In this document: piece by piece, positions 553-37,351 of the stretch
Numbering within the stretch: position 1 is the stretch's first letter
Layout: every line of letters starts with the position of its first letter
Origin: Candidatus Thorarchaeota archaeon
Lineage (GTDB): Archaea; Asgardarchaeota; Thorarchaeia; Thorarchaeales; Thorarchaeaceae
DNA: 64,000 nt
Assembly: GCA_019057475.1 (NCBI GenBank)
Contig: DXJO01000008.1
Location: forward strand, 1 to 64,000
Direction of reading: 5' to 3'
Made by a program: the position numbers and the translations under genes
Notes under the pieces: generated by a model
What the model was told of the DNA's origin: nothing
Database searches by the model: none
The model's input: the letters and a program-made list of their open reading frames with translations, nothing else

Positions 553-1338
553 GAAGTCCTTGCTGGTCGTTGGGATGCTCTGGCCACCTTGGCTATCCCT
601 GACAATGATAAGAGCATTAGAGCTCTCCTGAGGTTTCTGCATCTTATGGATAAGTGGGGCTATACAACATCCTTGATTGAGGTTGCATCTTCTGGAACTG
701 TGAACTGCTTCGACTACTATGACAGTAGGAATGGAGCGTGGGCAATACCGTGGGAACTGCTGGAGATTCAGATTCGCAAGGTATACAACGATGAGCTGGG
801 GTCAGCGTTTCCTCGAATTGACCATCCCACCTCAAGGACACAAATTCATCTTGATCGACTTGATTTGCAGATACTTGGCCAGGTCAGACATGGTAGTTCG
901 TCGATAGCTAAGGTAAGAACTGCACTCCATATTGGACAACAGAGAGCGGCTAAGAAATTGAAGCGGATGAGAGAAGCAGGCTTGATTCTCTCGACTTGGG
1001 AAATTCACAATATTGGCTTGGATGAGAGTGTGATTGTTGTTACTGATGACAAGAGAACCGCTGAGTCGATCACGGCATGGACACAGCGTCTCCCAAGAAG
1101 CATTGTATCGTTCGATGAGAATCGTAGGCTTTGCCTTGTGATGCAGTTGCTCAGTGGTGGAAGCTTTGGAATGGCGAGGGCTCTTTCCTCACTGTCAGGA
1201 AGAGTTACTGTTGATATGCTTGGCATAAAGATCTATGGCGCCTGGGGTTTCCCAACCAGCCTTTGGAATGTAAGCGAGCAAAGATGGCGGACACCCGACG
1301 ACGGACTTAGGGAATGGTTTGAGAAGCTGAATGCTTGA
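553..1338 (+). pseudogene. Winged-helix/Lrp-like regulator, apparently 5'-truncated
   Basis: HTH-like LDRLDLQILGQV...IAKVRTALHIGQQRAAKKLKRMREAGLI. Frame reads protein-like upstream of the TTG at 589 (EVLAGRWDALATLAIP) but is closed by TGA at 508-510 with no ATG after it. Confidence 0.5.
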
Positions 1339-1565
1339 AACTTGTCATGGATGATTTGAACGTATCATGCACAGAAGAAGACTCGATGCACAACGAATTC
1401 CAGTTCTTCCGGGAAGATTCGCATTTACAAGTTCATCATAGATGAGTGGAAACGAGTTCAAGGATGACTCGCAGAAAGCGACATTGTCATGCAAAGCCAG
1501 CAGAGAAGCCGGAATCAAAGGGGACGGGGTCAAGCGTGTGAAAAACATAGTTGCCAGTGGAGATC

Positions 1566-2198
1566 CTAATCCAGTCGCCAGGTGTACCTAGGTTGATCTG
1601 AAGGCCTTAATCTTGTCCAGAGAAGATACAATCCAAAAGGGAATATGTCAACAAGAACTGGCACGACCAAGAACCAAGGGAACACCGACGGACCGGGATC
1701 ATCTGGCTTGTTGTAGAGAATCAACAAGGGATACACCGATGATGAGGACATGTGTCCGAGGGTATCATTCGCAAAGAACTGGACATCAAACCAGGTTTCC
1801 GTTCTGCTGACGTTGACTGTGAACCGACCAACGTAGGTGTTTCCCTCGCCCGGTGGTAGTAGACTCATTGATTGATTCGTCCAGCTAGTTTCATTGGCGC
1901 GCTTATAGCTCAGCCAGACCGCATCCACGCCGTCAGGATCGTAGACATCTATGTCTACTGACGGAGTGCATTGATTGTAAAATGTGGATGTCAGGTCTGT
2001 GCTATAATTCCCAAATACTGGTCCTTCGCTTGAATTCGAAATAAGGGCACTCTGACTATCATTCAGGTTTGGCATGTCACACACAACAGGTGTCTGTGGG
2101 ATTACTAGAAGAATGAACACCAGAAAGACTGTGCGACCATTCAAGCGGTCACAACAGAGTCTGAAAGAGTTCTTCATCATAGCTACCAGCTGTTCCAA
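1566..2198 (-). CDS. Small secreted/membrane-anchored Ig-like protein
   Basis: N-terminal hydrophobic segment; DVYDPDGVDAVWLSY...FFANDTLGH beta-sandwich; C-terminal TM. Confidence 0.7.
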   Translation of the reverse strand: MEQLVAMMKNSFRLCCDRLNGRTVFLVFILLVIPQTPVVCDMPNLNDSQSALISNSSEGPVFGNYSTDLTSTFYNQCTPSVDIDVYDPDGVDAVWLSYKRANETSWTNQSMSLLPPGEGNTYVGRFTVNVSRTETWFDVQFFANDTLGHMSSSSVYPLLILYNKPDDPGPSVFPWFLVVPVLVDIFPFGLYLLWTRLRPSDQPRYTWRLD

Positions 2199-2411
2199 CT
2201 ATAGCTGAACCTAATCCAGGTCGGATGAAGATGATGTTTCTGCTCCCAGTCAGCCGACCAAGCATCACGGAATTCCAGCAGTAGATATACTGTTGAACCG
2301 GTGAGGTATATGTTTCTCATCATATTCTGTACTGTACCGGTTCAATGGGCTCCACACTCACCAGTTCGAGGGGCTCGGTCTCTTCGTTAAGCTTGGACAA
2401 CATGACCCAAC

Positions 2412-3761
2412 TCATTGAAACACATTCCATGGTTTTGGCCTCAAAGTGACTACCAAAGCAACAACAACTATCCCAACCACTCCTGTTAGAATTATGGCAT
2501 TCAGATTTTGATAGTTGATGTCATGAGTAGTAGAAACTTGCCCTCTAAATCGTGTAAGAGTAAGATTGGCATCAGCTTCGGGTAAAGAAAAACTGCCTTC
2601 AGCATAAATCACACCATCACCAACTGCTGCAATAGAGTTGATTCTGTAAGTAGTTTCAATCTCATTCAACACAGGCGACCACTCAGGAATACTGTCTAGA
2701 TTTGCATTAAGTTTCATGATTATGTATGGCTGCTCATAAACAGATAGCAAAGAGTAGACATCACCCTCAGGAGATACAACAAGATCAACTGCTGTAACAT
2801 AGAGAATTTCAGTATCATTCTGAACAATGAGTCTTCTTGTGATGAGTTCATCCCCATCTCGGCTCCATTTTGAGATATTGCAGTAGAAGTTCATCGAAAT
2901 CGCAGAATCTTTCAAAATGGAGTGGGAATTGCCAGTAGCCAAGATGACTATGTCTGGACGGGTCATGGAATATATTGACCCATCTGAAGAGGGTGAGATA
3001 CTGTGAAAGCTACCTTCGATATTCCAAATGACGTTTCCGTCTTCATCCCACTTTGTGAGGTATTGGCTTGTTAGAGTATATACAGACCCATCAGGAGAAA
3101 TGCCGAGCTGTCGACTACTATGAAATTCCGGACTATTTATGATTCTGTCCCAGATGAGGGATCCATTGCTACTCAATTTCACCAGAACCGGAAGTGGTCC
3201 AGTTGGTGCAATGAGTACATACACTGAGCCATCTTCAGACACCACAACATCCCTGGCTGTTTCATATTCTCCATAGTCAAGTGTTTGAATCCACGATACA
3301 GTACCAGATTGATTAACCTTCAACACCAGAGAGTCGCTACCACTTGACGATGGAGTACTTCCTATGAGGTACACGAAATGTGAATCAGCAGTGACAGCAT
3401 GAACGAGACTACTTCCAGCTTCATTGATTGTTTTCCCCCAAATCAGACCAGCAGTTGCGTTCCACTTTGCGAGCAGGATCCCATATGTAACACCTGGCAG
3501 ATATGAAGTCCCAATAGTGAAGATTTGATTCAGGTGAGGAACCGCTATCCCTTTTCCTTGGTCTGAATAATCAGTCCCCCACTCACCAGAATTAGTGATA
3601 TTGAAATCTCCACGCGGGTTTGCTAAATCAAGAACTATATCATCAACAACAGTTGATGAAGATACAGCTCCTCCAGATTGAATATAGAATGGTAGCATAA
3701 GTAATGCACAAAGGAAAACGGTCAGTAATGGTTGACAACCATTCCTCTTCAAAATGGACAA
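2412..3761 (-). CDS. Membrane-anchored beta-propeller surface protein
   Basis: Signal peptide; repeated 'S.DGSVY....VKL..NG..IW' blades; C-terminal TM plus basic tail. Confidence 0.8.
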   Translation of the reverse strand: MSILKRNGCQPLLTVFLCALLMLPFYIQSGGAVSSSTVVDDIVLDLANPRGDFNITNSGEWGTDYSDQGKGIAVPHLNQIFTIGTSYLPGVTYGILLAKWNATAGLIWGKTINEAGSSLVHAVTADSHFVYLIGSTPSSSGSDSLVLKVNQSGTVSWIQTLDYGEYETARDVVVSEDGSVYVLIAPTGPLPVLVKLSSNGSLIWDRIINSPEFHSSRQLGISPDGSVYTLTSQYLTKWDEDGNVIWNIEGSFHSISPSSDGSIYSMTRPDIVILATGNSHSILKDSAISMNFYCNISKWSRDGDELITRRLIVQNDTEILYVTAVDLVVSPEGDVYSLLSVYEQPYIIMKLNANLDSIPEWSPVLNEIETTYRINSIAAVGDGVIYAEGSFSLPEADANLTLTRFRGQVSTTHDINYQNLNAIILTGVVGIVVVALVVTLRPKPWNVFQ

Positions 3762-10888: not shown

Positions 10889-11614
10889 GTGCCTATGTTG
10901 GGAAAGAACGAGTCCAAGAGTCCCTGCATTGGTAAGCCCAAAACAGCGCGTCCCATGATGGCTGATTTCGTCCAGTTCGGGCAATTGACACAGGTGTCTT
11001 GCATGCTTGTAGGCCCGCTTGGATCTGGGAAAACTACTTACGCCGAGGCATTTCTGGCAGACGGACTGAAGCTTGGTTTCCCCGCAGTCTACGTGACTAC
11101 TGATGTTTCTCCACGCGTAGTGAGAAATGACATGAGCCGGCATGGTTGGATTATCGAGCGCTGCGAATCATCTGGACATTTCGTATTCATCGATGGATAC
11201 TCGGAGCGGATGGGAGCTCCCATTGCCAGTGGTGCTCGCTCTCTTGCGAAGGTGGAAGACATCACGGAACTGGGTATAGTTCTCTCCGGGGTTCTAGAGA
11301 ACATGGTGTGCGCGCGAGTAGTCATCGACAGCCTCTCAACCTTGATACTGCATTCAAATCCTGCAACAATGCCCAGATCAGTTCAGCGACTTGGCGGACG
11401 TGTTACACAGAACTCTCACAGTATCATGTTCATTCTCGAGGATGGTGTCCACGACGAGAAGACATACGCAACCTACTCGTATCTTGTGGACGCAGTCCTA
11501 CGTTTCAGAATTGATGAAAGCGGCTCCGAACCCGCTCACCAAGTGAGGATGGATCGGATGCGGAGCACTGAAGCCTCAAGAGAATGGCATGACTTCGTTA
11601 TCGGTTCTCCGTGA
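10889..11614 (+). CDS. Second single-domain KaiC/RAD55-family ATPase (CII-like, divergent)
   Basis: GPLGSGKT, RVVIDSLS, YSYLVDAV, RMRST; TTD in place of the catalytic EE. Confidence 0.85.
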   Translation: MPMLGKNESKSPCIGKPKTARPMMADFVQFGQLTQVSCMLVGPLGSGKTTYAEAFLADGLKLGFPAVYVTTDVSPRVVRNDMSRHGWIIERCESSGHFVFIDGYSERMGAPIASGARSLAKVEDITELGIVLSGVLENMVCARVVIDSLSTLILHSNPATMPRSVQRLGGRVTQNSHSIMFILEDGVHDEKTYATYSYLVDAVLRFRIDESGSEPAHQVRMDRMRSTEASREWHDFVIGSP

Positions 11615-18782: not shown

Positions 18783-20927
18783 ATGACCGACATCAACACG
18801 TCAATCACAGACGACCTAGCAAATCTTGGCGCTCGTGAGAAGAAGATGCCTAGGGTTCGTACTACTAGCAGTACCATGGAACCCTTTGCGGCACAGCGAA
18901 TCATTGAGAATCTGATGTTGGAGGCACGCCTGCTTCGCGCAGATGCACAGCTTGTGGCCATGAAGGTCATGGACCGAATCGTGGCGTCTGGCATCAAGTT
19001 CCTCTCAGGTCCGCTGATTCGTGAGATGTGCAACAGCGTGCTTGCAGAACTGGGACTTGAGAAGGAGCGCATACTGTACACTCGTGTCGGTATTCCTATG
19101 TATGACCTGAACCTTCTGATCAATGACCCTGGAGCACACACATCAAATGCTAATCTCATGCGAAACCCAGAGACCATCGCTAAACTCGTTCATGACCAGG
19201 TGATGGAGCAGCACACTTACCTCTCGATTCCTCCTCATCTTGCAGATGCGCACCTGAAGGGCGACATATACATCAAGGACCGCGAGTACTTCTCCACGCG
19301 CGATTATTGCGCGACCTGGGACATGAGGCAGGTTCTCCTCCTAGGGATTGCACCCGATGGGCTCGGCGGAATGCATTCCAGTGCTGCAGGACCCGCCCAG
19401 CATCTTCCAGTCGCAGTCAATCATTCAGCTATCTGGCTTGCCGCGGCGCAATCATCGTTTGCTGGCGGCCAAGGTTACTTCTACTTCAACACATTTCTCG
19501 CCCCCTACATGAAGGGCCTTTCCTACAAGAAGATCAAGCAGGCCGCGCAACAGCTAATCTTCACGCTCACGCAGCAGTATGTGGCCCGAGGCGGTCAGGT
19601 CATCTTCTCCAGCGTTGACCTCACACCAGGCATTCCCAAGATAATGAAGGATGTTCCTGCAGTCTTGCCTGGCGGAAAAGTCACCGAGCAGACCTATGGC
19701 GACTTTGAAGACGAGGCTCGCCAGTTCTTCAATGCGTTCATGGAGGTCATGATTAAGGGTGACATGAAGGGCAAGGGCTTCAACTTCCCGAAGCCGAACA
19801 TTGTCCTGCGTAAGGAGTTCATGAAGCCTGAGTTCGACGAGTCGTGGCGGCTTGTGGGCGAGCTGACTGCCAAGTTCGGGAGCCCGTACTTTGAGAACTA
19901 CCTTAACTGGAGATCCACAATTGAGGCTGGGTGCAGCAGTTGTTGTTCGCACCTGTGGACTGCCAGTAGCGACGAGGAGCTTGAGGAGTTCCTTTCAGGG
20001 AATATGGTCTTTGGGGCGTCTCAGATGGTCACGGCAAACTTCGGTCGCGCGGCGTGGGTTGGTCGGAGCGACGAGGACCACTTCTTTGCTAAGGTGGATG
20101 AGTATCTGGAGTTGAGCAAAGAGGTCATTCTGGAAAAGAAGCGCCTGATGGATAAGCTAATCGCCAGCGGAAGTGTGCCGTTCTACACTCAACCGAAACC
20201 CAATGGCGACCCGTTGATTGACATGAGCACGCGGGAGTTCTTGTTGGGAACAGTTGGCTTTACCGAGATGACGGAAATCGCCGTTGGCTCTCCCCTCCAC
20301 GAGCGTGAGGGCACTCGCTTCGGCATCAAGGTCCTGAAACATCTCAAGAAGCGAGCTAAGGAGTTTGAGAAAGAGACCGGTCTGAGCTTTGGGGTAACTC
20401 GTACACCAGCTGAGAGTGCCGCAGGTCGTCTGGCGTTGAAAGACTACAAGGCCTATCCCGGAATCAGGAAGTACCTCAAGGGCGAAAACCCGAATGTCTA
20501 CTACACCAACAGCACAACGTTGGATGTAGCCTCAGACTTGCCGCTGAGTGACCGAATCAAGAAGGAAGGGATGTTCCACCCGTACATGGACGGTGGCGCG
20601 CTGACACATGTCTATCTAGGTGAAGCTAATCCGGATCCCGACGCTCTGTGGGAGCTCACAAAGAAGATTGCCACATCGACACTTTCCTCTTACTGGAGTT
20701 TCACCAAGGATGTTTTGCAATGTCCGATGTGCAATTACCAGTCCGGTATCGACTGGAGAACCATGAAGTTCAACTCCGTTGAGGAACTGAATCAGATTCC
20801 CTGTCCTAGATGCGGATATGTTGGGGTGGAAATCTTCTCCAGAATTACTGGGTACGTCCAAGGAATTTCCACGTTCAACCCAGCAAAACAACAAGAGTTC
20901 CTGGACAGACACAGGTACACCCTCTAG
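18783..20927 (+). CDS. nrdD: Anaerobic (class III) ribonucleoside-triphosphate reductase with N-terminal ATP cone
   Basis: AHLKGDIYIKD, FPKP, TPAES, YYTNS, CPMC...CPRC Zn site, SRITGY glycyl-radical loop. Confidence 0.95.
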   Translation: MTDINTSITDDLANLGAREKKMPRVRTTSSTMEPFAAQRIIENLMLEARLLRADAQLVAMKVMDRIVASGIKFLSGPLIREMCNSVLAELGLEKERILYTRVGIPMYDLNLLINDPGAHTSNANLMRNPETIAKLVHDQVMEQHTYLSIPPHLADAHLKGDIYIKDREYFSTRDYCATWDMRQVLLLGIAPDGLGGMHSSAAGPAQHLPVAVNHSAIWLAAAQSSFAGGQGYFYFNTFLAPYMKGLSYKKIKQAAQQLIFTLTQQYVARGGQVIFSSVDLTPGIPKIMKDVPAVLPGGKVTEQTYGDFEDEARQFFNAFMEVMIKGDMKGKGFNFPKPNIVLRKEFMKPEFDESWRLVGELTAKFGSPYFENYLNWRSTIEAGCSSCCSHLWTASSDEELEEFLSGNMVFGASQMVTANFGRAAWVGRSDEDHFFAKVDEYLELSKEVILEKKRLMDKLIASGSVPFYTQPKPNGDPLIDMSTREFLLGTVGFTEMTEIAVGSPLHEREGTRFGIKVLKHLKKRAKEFEKETGLSFGVTRTPAESAAGRLALKDYKAYPGIRKYLKGENPNVYYTNSTTLDVASDLPLSDRIKKEGMFHPYMDGGALTHVYLGEANPDPDALWELTKKIATSTLSSYWSFTKDVLQCPMCNYQSGIDWRTMKFNSVEELNQIPCPRCGYVGVEIFSRITGYVQGISTFNPAKQQEFLDRHRYTL

Positions 20928-21009
20928 CTCGAGTGCTAAGCTGCAAGTGGGGGCTTATTCGCAGAAAGTCAACAGCAGAAGATTCCCATTCTTCGACAGG
21001 TTGATTCTG

Positions 21010-21173
21010 GTCTTCAGTGGTATCACCTAGATGGTGGGCATGCAGGAATAATCTGCTGCCCTTTCTCTGAGAGTGCGGGTCATCGATGAAAGTCCAAGGG
21101 TTGTGGGAGTGCGCTTCGTGGACGCTACTCCCGCAAGGACTTCCATCTCCAAGGGATGTCATGATTCAACCTT
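21010..21173 (+). repeat. Structured non-coding repeat, copy 1
   Basis: 96-nt core 21078-21173 matches 22235-22330 with 10 differences; long stem GATGAAAGTCC/GGACTTCCATC, inner TGTGGGA/TCCCGCA, upstream hairpin GGGCA/TGCCC. Confidence 0.85.
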
Positions 21174-21328
21174 TCATGCCCATTTCGGAGGTTCTAGTTG
21201 ACAGAGGGCGCATGTGGGTTTTCTAAGGGGTGCAGTTTATCGCATTTGGTTTCAGCTAATCACAACCTCTCTCTTTGGACGATACAAGAAATCTAGCCAA
21301 GAATGCACCGATCACGAGTACCGTGCAA

Positions 21329-21868
21329 CTATGACGGTTCCAATACATCTAGATATGTTAAGAAATGGCTTAGGAGATTCTCCAGGTCCTCTACTTTCTT
21401 TACTCCGGTAAGAACGAGCTTGCCTGAACCAAACGCTAGAACCGTCATTCGCGAGTTTCGCTTGTGGAAAATTAGTCCCGGAAAGGTTTCAGGGATATAG
21501 GTCATTTGATCATAATAGCATTCTGACAGCTTTTCAATGTCTAGCTCCCTTGCCAGGTTTGCAGTGGCTACAATATTCCATACTGCCAGCTTGAAATCGT
21601 ACTGTTCTATAATGCCAGCCTTCTCTAGTTCTCGAAGGACTGCTTTCTTTGCTTCATCTATTTCCTCAAAGCTCTTTGCCCCGGCAAACGCAATAATCCC
21701 GGATTGGTAGAATATGACAGCGATATCTGGACTCTCGAGCCGAAAGGATAGATTGCTGCTTACAAGGCTCTTTCTCTTTACGTGGAACAACCTACTAATA
21801 AGCCCTAAATCGAGTTGAAGCCCTGTCCTTATTGCTCCGAGGATGCTCTGTATCTCACATACAACCAT
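21329..21868 (-). CDS. tbp: TATA-box binding protein paralogue (N-terminal repeat degenerate)
   Basis: Second repeat WNIVAT...YIPETFPGLIF...FGSGKLVLTG; first repeat only partly recognisable (GAKS retained). Confidence 0.85.
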   Translation of the reverse strand: MVVCEIQSILGAIRTGLQLDLGLISRLFHVKRKSLVSSNLSFRLESPDIAVIFYQSGIIAFAGAKSFEEIDEAKKAVLRELEKAGIIEQYDFKLAVWNIVATANLARELDIEKLSECYYDQMTYIPETFPGLIFHKRNSRMTVLAFGSGKLVLTGVKKVEDLENLLSHFLTYLDVLEPS

Positions 21869-22168
21869 GGTGAGAGTTCTCCAATTGGCTGGTCAATCCA
21901 AATATGTTTCTAATAGTCTGCCGGTGAAATGGCATTTTAAGGCGAATGAATGGTTCTGACCATTGATGTTCAGTTCTAGATGCAGGGCATCAGCTTGAAA
22001 AAAAACTCGAAATCGCGTTTCAGACATTCCTATATCAGGCAATGACTGTATCTCAAGAACCACACGCAAAAAGGAGTTTACATCATGGTAAAATGGCATC
22101 GCTGATGCTCCGAAACAGCATAAGCCGTTTATGGACGGATGCAGGAAATGATGAACTTAATGAAACAT

Positions 22169-22330
22169 GTCTTCAAGGAGATTAGCAGATGGGAGCCAAC
22201 AGGGCTGGCTTGGTTCCCGTTTTCTGAGATTGGTGGTCATCGATGAGAGTCCAAGGGTTGTGGGAACGCACTTCGTGAACGCTACTCCCGCATGGACTTT
22301 CATCTCGAAGGGATGTCGTGATTCAGCCTT
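22169..22330 (+). repeat. Structured non-coding repeat, copy 2
   Basis: See copy 1; stem GATGAGAGTCCA/TGGACTTTCATC, upstream hairpin GGGAGCCAA/TTGGTTCCC. Confidence 0.85.
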
Positions 22331-22500
22331 ATGTTCTCATACAATGAAATCGATTTGGTCCTAGACTACTCACTAGACGCCATTCTCATGAAAACGGCCT
22401 AAGCTTGGAATTCTCCGGATCAAATCGGGGCAACAGAGATGCAGGAAGCTCTTTGAAGAAGGAAATCGTCAACAAGCATGCGCGAAAGTAGTGATTGCTG

Positions 22501-23022
22501 ATGAGGATTGAAATCGTCAACGTTGTGGCAACTTCAGACATTGGTGAAAGCATCGATCTTGATGAGATTTCTCGGATGCCACAAGTTATTTACAATCCTT
22601 CAAAGTATCGCTGTGCCTATTTCAAGGATGATGGAATGCAAGCCAAGGTTTCCATATTCCCCTCTGGGAAGATGATTGCGGTAGGAGCGAAGAGTGAAGA
22701 AACTGCGCGAAGAGATCTGCTACACGTAACTCAATTATTGGGCGTCAACATAGGTACGATAAAGGTCGAGATTCGAAATGTCGTTGCTACTGTGGATCTA
22801 GAAACTGCTATCAATCTTGAAGCTCTTCAAGACGTGGTTCCAGGAATTATCTATGAACCAGAACAGTTCCCTGGCGCAATCTTCAGGCCTGCGCGTCATC
22901 CTGTGACAGTCCTGATTTTTGGTTCAGGTAAGCTGGTCCTGGCAGGCTTGAAGACTTCTGAGTCGTTGTCTGATATAGTGCAGAATATTGTTCAAGAACT
23001 AAACCTAAGGGATTTCGCATAA
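22501..23022 (+). CDS. tbp: TATA-box binding protein paralogue
   Basis: IVNVVAT...IFPSGK..GAKS; IRNVVAT...YEPEQFPGAIFR...IFGSGKLVLAG. Confidence 0.92.
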   Translation: MRIEIVNVVATSDIGESIDLDEISRMPQVIYNPSKYRCAYFKDDGMQAKVSIFPSGKMIAVGAKSEETARRDLLHVTQLLGVNIGTIKVEIRNVVATVDLETAINLEALQDVVPGIIYEPEQFPGAIFRPARHPVTVLIFGSGKLVLAGLKTSESLSDIVQNIVQELNLRDFA

Positions 23023-32027: not shown

Positions 32028-32442
32028 TCATGCGCCCCCAATTGCATTCTTTCGTGTCACACACGACAGTGTCTAAATACTCAAAGAACTGTCTTATCAA
32101 CATTTCGAAGGTTCGCGAGTACCTTTTCTTATAGAATGGGATCAACCTCCAAATTGTGCAGATTCAGGGACTTCTGCTTTTCCAAGAGCAAGCTTTGGTT
32201 GACCTCCAACCAAATGGATGTTAAGCTGCCAGTGGGGACGCCCTCGTACCAAGCCAGCAGAAGAAGTTTCCCTTTCGCCCGCGGGCGGATTCTGGTCTTT
32301 AGCATCCTAGCTCCATCCGCAGACATATTGCGGGCACTCCTTTTCGTGCGAATTTGCAGCTAGACTTCTGTGCTCATATTCAAGCACAAAGATTGCATCA
32401 GGAGTCGCCAGCGTTATTAGGGCCCCCTGCAGATATGACCTA

Positions 32443-33063
32443 ATGCCAAACATCCTCAGTGCAAGGGTTCTCAATCGGTTCGCAAAGCAAGTTCCTGAAC
32501 TCAGAGAGGCACTACAAGCGGCAAGAATGGAACTAGAGCACACGATGACACCGCCATTCGAGATGCTGATCAGATCAATCGTCTACCAGCAGTTGTCAGG
32601 AAAAGCCGCACGAACAATCCACGACCGAATGCTCGAACTCATTGGCAACCTGACACCCAAATCCGTTCTCGCGAAGACGCAAGAAGAGCTTCGAAGCGTG
32701 GGTCTCTCTAGGCAGAAGGCTTCCTACCTCCACAACATAGCTGAAGCGTTCGACAAGAAGGGGTTCCTTGAGAAGTACAAGAACGCTGAATCACTTAACG
32801 GACTGTCATCAGACGAGATCGTCAAGCTCTTTGTTGACATCAAGGGCGTGGGCGAGTGGACCGTGCAGATGTACATGATATTCGCGCTCGGGCGACTTGA
32901 TGTACTGGCTCCAAATGATCTTGGTGTACGCAAGGGGGTCATGAATCTCTATGGGCTGGAGGAGATGCCGAACCCGAAACAGGTCAAGAATCTAGCTGAG
33001 AAGTGGCATCCATTGGAAACCGTTGGCACGATTCTTGCTTGGCGTGTGCTGGAATTTGAGTAG
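32443..33063 (+). CDS. alkA: DNA-3-methyladenine glycosylase II (HhH-GPD)
   Basis: SIVYQQLSGKAA, GLSRQKASY, IKGVGEWT HhH, DVL.P.DLGVRKG, W.P. Confidence 0.92.
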   Translation: MPNILSARVLNRFAKQVPELREALQAARMELEHTMTPPFEMLIRSIVYQQLSGKAARTIHDRMLELIGNLTPKSVLAKTQEELRSVGLSRQKASYLHNIAEAFDKKGFLEKYKNAESLNGLSSDEIVKLFVDIKGVGEWTVQMYMIFALGRLDVLAPNDLGVRKGVMNLYGLEEMPNPKQVKNLAEKWHPLETVGTILAWRVLEFE

Positions 33064-37052: not shown

Positions 37053-37351
37053 GTCGCTATTGGCTCTATTAATCTGGCACATGGGTGACCAATGTGTTGT
37101 CCGGCCGTTGTTGAGATGGAATCCTTCCATGCGCTAGGAGTTCTTGGACAGACACAGGTATTCACTTTGATTCGCTATTCGCTGAAATCTCCTAACTTGG
37201 ACCACCTGTGCTGATTTATAAGTAAGCAGAGCTACAATTTGGGGCGTGCTGCGAGGGAGATTATAAACAGCGTCGTTACATCGATTTCATTTAACTGGAC
37301 TTGCATGAGCAGACCTCGACCGCGTTCGTCGCAGCGGAGGAGAGAGTGTTC

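Follow-up and report, generated by a model that had tools for sequence, protein, structure and literature searches.

The stretch of DNA analysed here (the window) spans positions 1 to 64,000 of contig DXJO01000008.1 (assembly GCA_019057475.1) of a Candidatus Thorarchaeota archaeon. It carries two direct copies of a hairpin-rich unit of about 165 nucleotides (nt), which we call E, next to nrdD, the complete gene of an anaerobic ribonucleotide reductase (18783..20927, plus strand; Pfam NRDD 2.9e-131), and to genes for TBP paralogues. The copies align over 120 nt without gaps at 86% identity (21054-21173 versus 22211-22330), and extension of the alignment takes the unit to about 21010-21185 in copy 1 and about 22169-22343 in copy 2. 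Copy 1 (21017..21185, plus strand, full length) was delimited by repeat detection, by folding and by a covariance model match (21017-21183, 172-192 bits). It comprises a 5' hairpin (21036-21061), a long central hairpin (21085-21147) and a T-rich motif at the 3' terminus (21170-21183). In copy 2 (22169..22343, plus strand; model match 22176-22340, 145-164 bits) the 5' hairpin (22191-22218) has another sequence, the central hairpin lies at 22242-22304 and the 3' motif ends with CTCAT at 22340; several single-stranded motifs are conserved between the copies. The original prediction, made from the letters of the window, had described two such copies with a common order of motifs and a 5' hairpin that keeps its place but not its sequence, and had placed copy 1 after nrdD and copy 2 before a plus-strand TBP gene. 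All of this holds: copy 1 begins 55-90 nt past the nrdD stop (20927), and copy 2 ends 155 nt ahead of the TBP gene at 22495..23022 (Pfam TBP 1.2e-39).

E has four full copies in this genome, two in the window and one each on contigs C51 and C32. Their E-values range from 1e-34 to 1e-82, and the repeat is far above chance. Across the four copies, the substitutions in 105 nt of the core are distributed 9/7/6 over the codon positions, and the reading frames of the core are broken in homologues. Because the substitutions are spread evenly, the core is non-coding, as had been claimed earlier from the lack of a synonymous bias, and a coding core or pseudogene was rejected. The only coding sequence adjoining E is a stretch on its 5' side, on the opposite strand, described below. 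No Rfam family (release 15) matches E when the whole window is scanned at gathering thresholds. With E-values up to 10, the region 20900-22450 yields only two chance-level matches, SNORD43 (20 bits, cut-off 45) and SpR19 (19 bits, cut-off 79), both outside the hairpins. A weak C/D-box-like match at 22143-22175 is likewise outside the repeat, far below threshold, and was discarded. Single copies do not fold consistently: relative to shuffles, the fold of copy 1 is better on the minus strand (z -3.8) than on the plus strand (z -2.0), and the minimum free energy structure of the C51 copy lacks the hairpin (z +0.7). Folding energies of single sequences were therefore not used as evidence.

BLASTN with E against 60 relatives returned no homologue; the homologues were reached only by covariance models. 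A model built from the four genomic copies gave full-length matches in other genera. With a second model, which drew on ten diverse copies, E was detected 47 times in the archaeal family to which this genome belongs, in 30 of the 86 genomes scanned; 125 genomes from 26 other families of the phylum had no match. In the alignment of the 47 sequences, 43 of the 48 modelled pairs show changes on both sides. Double-change cells number 301, versus 48-67 when the partners are slid by 1-3 columns, and 79% of the cells are paired, versus 36-45% in the slid controls. The observed pairing and double-change values were equalled in 0 of 500 shuffles. Some pairs are split almost evenly among homologues (for example, U-A in 19 and C-G in 17). 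The compensatory changes are thus well above both slid and shuffled controls, as befits a structured cis-element. Moreover, MAFFT/RNAalifold applied to 15 diverse copies recovered de novo, as a partial confirmation, the central hairpin, 13 of whose 14 pairs show compensatory changes. The two hairpins are thus conserved features in spite of the use of a model-fitted alignment. An asymmetric internal loop and a bulge are conserved in position, and the central hairpin has two sequence-conserved segments, GGGAACG and CTAGTCCC. The ends of the stem read GA(G/T)(A/G)A... and ...(T/C)TCTC in the alignment, and the 3' boundary of E is sharp in nearly all copies, falling right after TTCTC(G/A)T.

An RNA that functions on one strand normally tolerates G·U pairs and avoids A·C. 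In helices 3-7 of the 47 homologues, Watson-Crick cells number 988, against 59 with G·U, 83 with A·C and 95 with other mismatches, a pattern unlike that of a single-stranded functional RNA. G·U and A·C being about equally common, Watson-Crick complementarity is what is conserved in E, with neither strand preferred. The G-U bias towards the plus strand that had been read from the two window copies thus disappears in the larger sample; in two copies, such a bias is what neutral transitions produce.

The owner of E becomes visible in the distant homologues, in which similarity extends upstream of E as minus-strand coding sequence starting exactly at its 5' end. Read on the opposite strand, the conserved 5' motif GTCTTCA(T) becomes ATGAAGAC, which encodes the start (M-K-T) of a protein of 89 amino acids (aa), p89, conserved at 46-57% identity. 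At six genome loci the order of genes after E is p89, a PriS-like protein, p600 and a protein with a helix-turn-helix (HTH) and an HNH domain, and E is directly upstream of p89 in every intact module. The PriS-like protein (326 aa) has a weak match to PDB 1zt2 (E-value 9e-4) and falls below the cut-off of Pfam DNA_primase_S. p600 (565-602 aa; for example, L031 2141-3949 and L072 8473-10170) has no Pfam match; it carries a CxCxxC...H zinc motif like that of tRNA-guanine transglycosylases (TGT) and gives weak TGT/DpdA leads in the atlas (score 0.85), and is possibly a DNA- or RNA-guanine transglycosylase carried on a mobile element. The last protein (274-329 aa) combines a resolvase-type HTH (HTH_7) with an HNH nuclease domain. 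The model of p89 (predicted local distance difference test score, pLDDT, 89) has a three-stranded sheet followed by long helices, not the ribbon-helix-helix fold that had been considered; that p89 binds nucleic acid is a lead only. When the PriS-like protein was the only query used on metagenomes, all 11 loci having upstream sequence turned out to carry E, at constant distance and orientation, as did two further short contigs. None of the 53 relatives of the PriS-like protein is annotated, and wherever a source is named it is Candidatus Thorarchaeota. In short, E is what invariably precedes the p89-primase operon of a mobile element. The searchable literature on mobile elements of Asgard archaea gave us no account of either E or the module.

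Mobility is evident from the settings of the module, which sits among unrelated housekeeping genes in different genomes. Its insertion sites vary, and two of them recur, one convergent with nrdD and the other upstream of rpl10e. An integrated module at L072 is flanked by direct repeats of 170 nt, 96% identical and 4,225 nt apart. At L078 (contig G012:C59), the contig is 4,367 nt long and holds E and the module only. Its ends share 47 identical nt, made up of the end of E and 20 nt of the adjoining flank, which indicates a 4,320-bp circle, a tandem array being less likely. In this 4,320-bp unit the genes are tightly packed and E is the sole sizeable non-coding stretch. E is thus both linked to replication genes (the 11 metagenome loci) and the main non-coding region of a replicon (L078). 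The idea that short contigs generally mean free plasmids was rejected in part, since L211, L227 and probably further contigs represent integrated copies. At the end of both L211 and L227 is the C-terminus of nrdD, convergent with the HNH gene (with a gap of 8 nt in L227); L212 and L213 have no terminal overlap.

A homology search found neither a PriS-like nor a p600 gene anywhere in the genome of the window. Since this genome lacks the module genes and has only E and p89 stubs, the window copies are gene-less relics of the mobile element, and not an independent repeat family. The p89 relic of copy 1 (20928..21026, minus strand) keeps 23 open codons, from 21026 down to 20955 (VIPLKTRINLSKNGNLLLLTFCE*), and then degenerates up to the nrdD stop. 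It matches intact p89 by tblastn (44% over 39 aa) and aligns with the intact loci. The first 15 nt or so of the interval originally assigned to the repeats, 21010-22330, belong to the start of this minus-strand relic. By comparison with L211 and L227, the copy 1 locus derives by deletion from a module that had been inserted in convergent orientation to nrdD; G062 has the same junction. At copy 2, p89 is gone beyond its first three codons or so. A third, reduced relic was recognized by tblastn and inspection at 32219..32385, 58 nt upstream of a plus-strand open reading frame (ORF) at 32443-33063. It consists of an N-terminal remnant of p89 on the minus strand (32219-32299; LKTRIRPRAKGKLLLLAWYEG) and a shortened E in plus sense (about 32300-32385), in which the 5' hairpin is degenerate, the 3' end GTGCTCATA survives and the central hairpin is missing, and which falls below the threshold of the covariance model.

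The 47 copies differ in what accompanies them. p89 or a stub of it is attached to 13 or 14 copies; in about 30 solo copies, which have no p89 downstream, the central hairpin persists. An intact 5' hairpin is seen in 13 of the 14 p89-linked copies versus 14 of the 33 others (the copies not being independent), and the central hairpin is retained in both groups. On the other side of E, 28 of 41 copies have a downstream gene on the same strand. At 15 loci rpl10e (uL16) lies downstream on the same strand, 100-145 nt away at eight and 0.7-5.8 kb away at seven. At the seven distant loci, variable genes (for leucine-rich repeat (LRR) proteins and small membrane proteins), sometimes with extra E copies, lie in between. 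The rpl10e loci come from genera g3, g5 and g7 (for example, L083 7038-7847 and L033 2173-10221). A recurrent ORF of about 180 aa downstream of E, TBP-sized and for that reason a candidate, proved to be this ribosomal protein, uL16/L10e. The region upstream of rpl10e is a second hotspot. The rpl10e-proximal copies are often truncated and without the 5' hairpin, and rpl10e of the window's own genome has no E upstream.

Same-strand arrays of two or three E copies, 1.1-6.2 kb apart, occur in seven contigs (the window, G069 x3, G108, G104, G080 and G025), and also at L215. The order at L215 is E, about 2 kb of other sequence, the module (HNH, p600, PriS and p89, running against the sense of E), E and rpl10e, which is the product expected from an E-bearing circle recombining with a resident E. 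A two-gene cassette is common to G069 and G079, and the homology begins exactly at the 3' boundary of an E copy. Many copies are located at contig ends. The copies do regularly border variable genes, as the original prediction had proposed to check, often in the form of same-strand arrays, and the best reading is that E is also a recombination landmark.

We favour, with somewhat better than even confidence, the reading that E is the relic non-coding control region of a small (about 4.3 kb) mobile element restricted to Thorarchaeota, holding promoters, an operator and probably the origin, and acting mainly as DNA. As E is the sole sizeable non-coding stretch of the 4.3-kb unit, the p89 promoter, probably a promoter for the opposite side, and the origin are expected to lie within it. 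The 5' hairpin may be a palindromic promoter/operator for p89, because the hairpin is kept where p89 is kept. By inspection, E contains an A/T-rich, TATA-like motif (TCAAATAA on the p89 strand) 43 nt before the ATG of p89, and GGGTG stands 8 nt before that codon, positions that would have the 5' hairpin span the likely start site in the manner of an operator. The central hairpin is the best candidate for the replication origin, or for another folded-DNA site read by the primase or the nuclease. At its 3' end E reads TTTTATTCTCGT, which is similar to the rpl10e promoter region of the same loci, CCTTTTATTC, and this T-rich end could serve as an outward promoter driving any gene downstream. Recombination of E with E, between plasmid and chromosome or within chromosomes, would then generate the same-strand arrays around variable genes as well as the solo copies, much as solo long terminal repeats (LTRs) arise.

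Several observations weigh against this control-region reading. The origin and promoter roles are deduced from position alone. The free circle is represented by one contig, L078, the other short contigs being integrated copies broken at repeats. The assignments of the primase and of the TGT/DpdA-like protein are weak, for the reasons given above, and so are the fold matches of p89 (E-values 0.17-0.3), which are to the PUR repeat and AP2, nucleic-acid-binding domains of sheet and helix. The alignments of 47 sequences that display the covariation were fitted to the covariance model. The equal counts of G·U and A·C are compatible with a pair of sense and antisense RNAs too. Finally, the relic copies of this genome keep nearly intact hairpins with no module present, so that an independent function of E is conceivable.

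Among the alternatives, the one that fares best is that E is a recombination site in its own right, att- or attC-like and perhaps a folded single-stranded DNA, at which E-bearing circles integrate, the arrays being arrays of cassettes. This reading overlaps the one we favour and is compatible with it; we consider it unlikely. The spacing of the same-strand arrays, the module lodged between two E copies beside rpl10e at L215, the cassette homology of G069 and G079, the sharp 3' boundary and the abundance of copies at contig ends would all be accounted for, and hairpins without strand bias suit folded or cruciform DNA. However, no tyrosine or serine recombinase adjoins any examined copy: Pfam scans of the neighbours at 9 loci found no such enzyme or integrase beside E, and PF00589 has no match on the contig of the window, the nearest being on C51, 11 kb off and below the cut-off. 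Furthermore, the module with clear flanking repeats, at L072, uses its other, 170-nt repeat rather than E, the module at L076 has a single E, E is devoid of attC boxes, and homologous recombination between 165-nt repeats gives identical arrays. If recombination of E with E were site-specific, it would represent a new way to assemble gene cassettes.

It is less probable that E acts as RNA. In that case it would form a long, structured leader at the 5' end of the p89-primase mRNA, either by itself or together with a complementary countertranscript through which copy number is controlled. Control of this kind is present in many small plasmids. E does lie between a possible upstream promoter and the p89 start, the strand that would be the leader is the one that folds better in copy 1, and the position-conserved asymmetric loop and bulge suit a folded single strand better than duplex DNA. 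A sense/antisense pair would also account for the missing bias between G·U and A·C. On the other hand, transcription from the TATA-like motif, inside E, would leave the central hairpin untranscribed, and the solo copies, some 30 of them, maintain that hairpin without a p89 to lead into. There is no match to an Rfam family, and long 5' leaders are uncommon in archaea.

A narrower version of the recombination-site reading, and one that we rate as rather improbable, makes E the folded-DNA recombination site of an integrase-less Asgard cassette system, in which capture depends on the HNH nuclease, p89 and the PriS-like primase-polymerase of the module. Resident E copies next to rpl10e and nrdD would be the places at which small circles, each made up of E and one or a few genes (for TBP paralogues, LRR proteins or defence), are captured and exchanged, and the system, if true, would be a functional analogue of integrons made from unrelated enzymes. 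The likeness of E to the attC sites of integrons and the repeats of Vibrio cholerae is that these too are structure-conserved imperfect palindromes, of about 60-140 nt, in same-orientation arrays beside short, variable, often unannotated genes. E shares with attC the separation of cassettes by same-orientation arrays. However, the attC boxes RYYYAAC and GTTRRRY were not found at the palindrome ends in the 47-sequence alignment, nor GTTRRRY at the 3' boundary; E is without the R''/L''-L'/R' arrangement and has long conserved primary sequence outside the stem. Neither an IntI-type integrase nor attI is near E, which, unlike attC, carries a gene start and promoter-like motifs and forms only short arrays (2-3 copies). 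The attC-like proposal made for the window copies therefore survives in the bordering of variable genes and fails in the boxes and the integrase.

We think it very improbable that E is the gene of a trans-acting host non-coding RNA (ncRNA) targeted for integration in the way tRNA genes are, the extra copies being target duplications. The shared orientation of E and rpl10e at 15 loci, eight of them at a fixed 100-145 nt, would fit, and the terminal T-run could end transcription in archaea. However, a host gene would hardly be confined to 30 of the 86 genomes of the family, or be missing upstream of the rpl10e of this genome, or be fused to the start of p89 in every intact module whatever the site of insertion. 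Pairing without strand bias and the frequent loss of the 5' hairpin near rpl10e also speak against it. The original choice between an unrecognised ncRNA and a cis-element thus falls to the latter: a structured, covarying non-coding cis-element is upheld, and a free-standing ncRNA is unsupported.

Other identities were set aside more readily. A miniature inverted-repeat transposable element (MITE), or other miniature derived from an insertion sequence, would not fit, as the ends of E are not complementary and the flanks show no short direct duplication on inspection. The template/variable repeats of a diversity-generating retroelement are not indicated either, the substitutions (also by inspection) not being adenine-specific. 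A hammerhead-like reading of CTGAGAG...GAAA misfits the core and has no Rfam match. A scan of viral contigs for the core motif gave 120+ matches, zero of which were confirmed by the covariance model.

Known systems resemble the element in part. The pRN1-type archaeal plasmids have an operon of a CopG-like repressor and a prim-pol, and a stem-loop origin. They are likewise small replicons in which a short gene for a DNA-binding protein is followed by that of a primase of the archaeo-eukaryotic type, with a single compact, hairpin-bearing non-coding region beside the operon, and they are integrative and leave chromosomal relics. There is no sequence similarity, however. The module primase is PriS-like and not of the ORF904 type, no helicase domain was found, the partners are a TGT/DpdA-like protein and an HNH nuclease with no integrase, and E, whose hairpins are upstream of the operon, persists as many solo copies. 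Solo LTRs are comparable in being numerous gene-less copies of the regulatory region of a mobile element, with promoter-like ends directed outwards and direct pairs that flank element genes (as at L215). Unlike an LTR element, the parent element has one E and not two, the duplication arises only on integration into a resident E, and the host is prokaryotic. The single-strand origins (sso) of rolling-circle plasmids, which prime as folded DNA, are also non-coding stretches of about 150-200 nt, in which long, imperfect hairpins combine with short unpaired motifs that are conserved. They differ in that the module has no rolling-circle Rep (HUH) gene and an archaeal host, and there is no sequence relation.

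The setting of the window relics bears on nrdD as an insertion site. A displaced nrdD 3' end lies 16.2 kb downstream of the intact gene (37138..37160, plus strand). It is identical to 20895-20917 at 22 of 23 nt, reads EFLDRHRY and was detected by blastn-short within the window (E-value 6e-5) and by tblastn. Together with nrdD it brackets, in the manner of attL and attR, a 16-kb island that holds all three E relics, TBP, a Type I restriction-modification system and a nuclease. On a metagenome contig (L217, Ga0114923_10000459, 600-3669), four nrdD 3'-end fragments (about aa 690-714) in one orientation lie in tandem downstream of an E-p89-primase module, which reads as the signature of repeated site-specific insertion. 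Contig C17 has an nrdD-end fragment at 11438-11469 and a tyrosine integrase at its start (87-575). The 3' end of nrdD is thus a site of repeated integration, for which a separate, integrase-bearing element is probably responsible. The C32 copy of E follows a truncated nrdD paralogue with 85% nucleotide identity. Partial nrdD copies in the genome of the window (G000; C32:19270-19971, C22:3-599, C24:1-150 and C20:9535-9636), with 83-92% aa identity to the window NrdD, lie mostly at contig ends, which suggests strain heterogeneity or paralogous relics, with assembly breaks around the nrdD hotspot.

Characterised mobile elements are very few among the Asgard archaea. What is gained here is a structured cis-element specific to one family, together with a covariance model that can be put to use, its owner in the form of a small primase/TGT-like/HNH element, and two hotspots in the chromosome, one at the 3' end of nrdD and one ahead of rpl10e, that gather E and cargo, including divergent TBP paralogues and the defence island of the window. 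E can serve as a practical marker of island boundaries and relic insertions in Thorarchaeota genomes, and its hairpins, on either strand and as DNA or RNA, are concrete substrates for the biochemistry of the unusual PriS-like enzyme.

The link of E to TBP, in contrast, is incidental: TBP adjoins no E copy other than those of the window, and a functional link was rejected. The repeat does flank a TBP gene, as originally described, but the interval between the copies holds a second one, on the minus strand (21329-21868; Pfam TBP 1.5e-28), together with a 68-aa ORF (21893-22099, minus strand). Copy 2 hence occupies the divergent intergenic position, where a divergent promoter would lie, between two TBP paralogues that are transcribed away from it, and the ORF and the minus-strand TBP gene (21329..22099) fill, relative to it, the slot that p89 has in intact modules. 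The two paralogues are about 31% identical to each other and 33-34% identical to a third TBP on C50. Lying amid mobile-element debris, they may be element-derived transcription factors. On the sense side of the C51 copy (L018, G000:C51, 9152-14921) is a possible defence pair: a protein of 1337 aa with a helicase domain and another of 593 aa that carries an MrfA zinc-binding domain.

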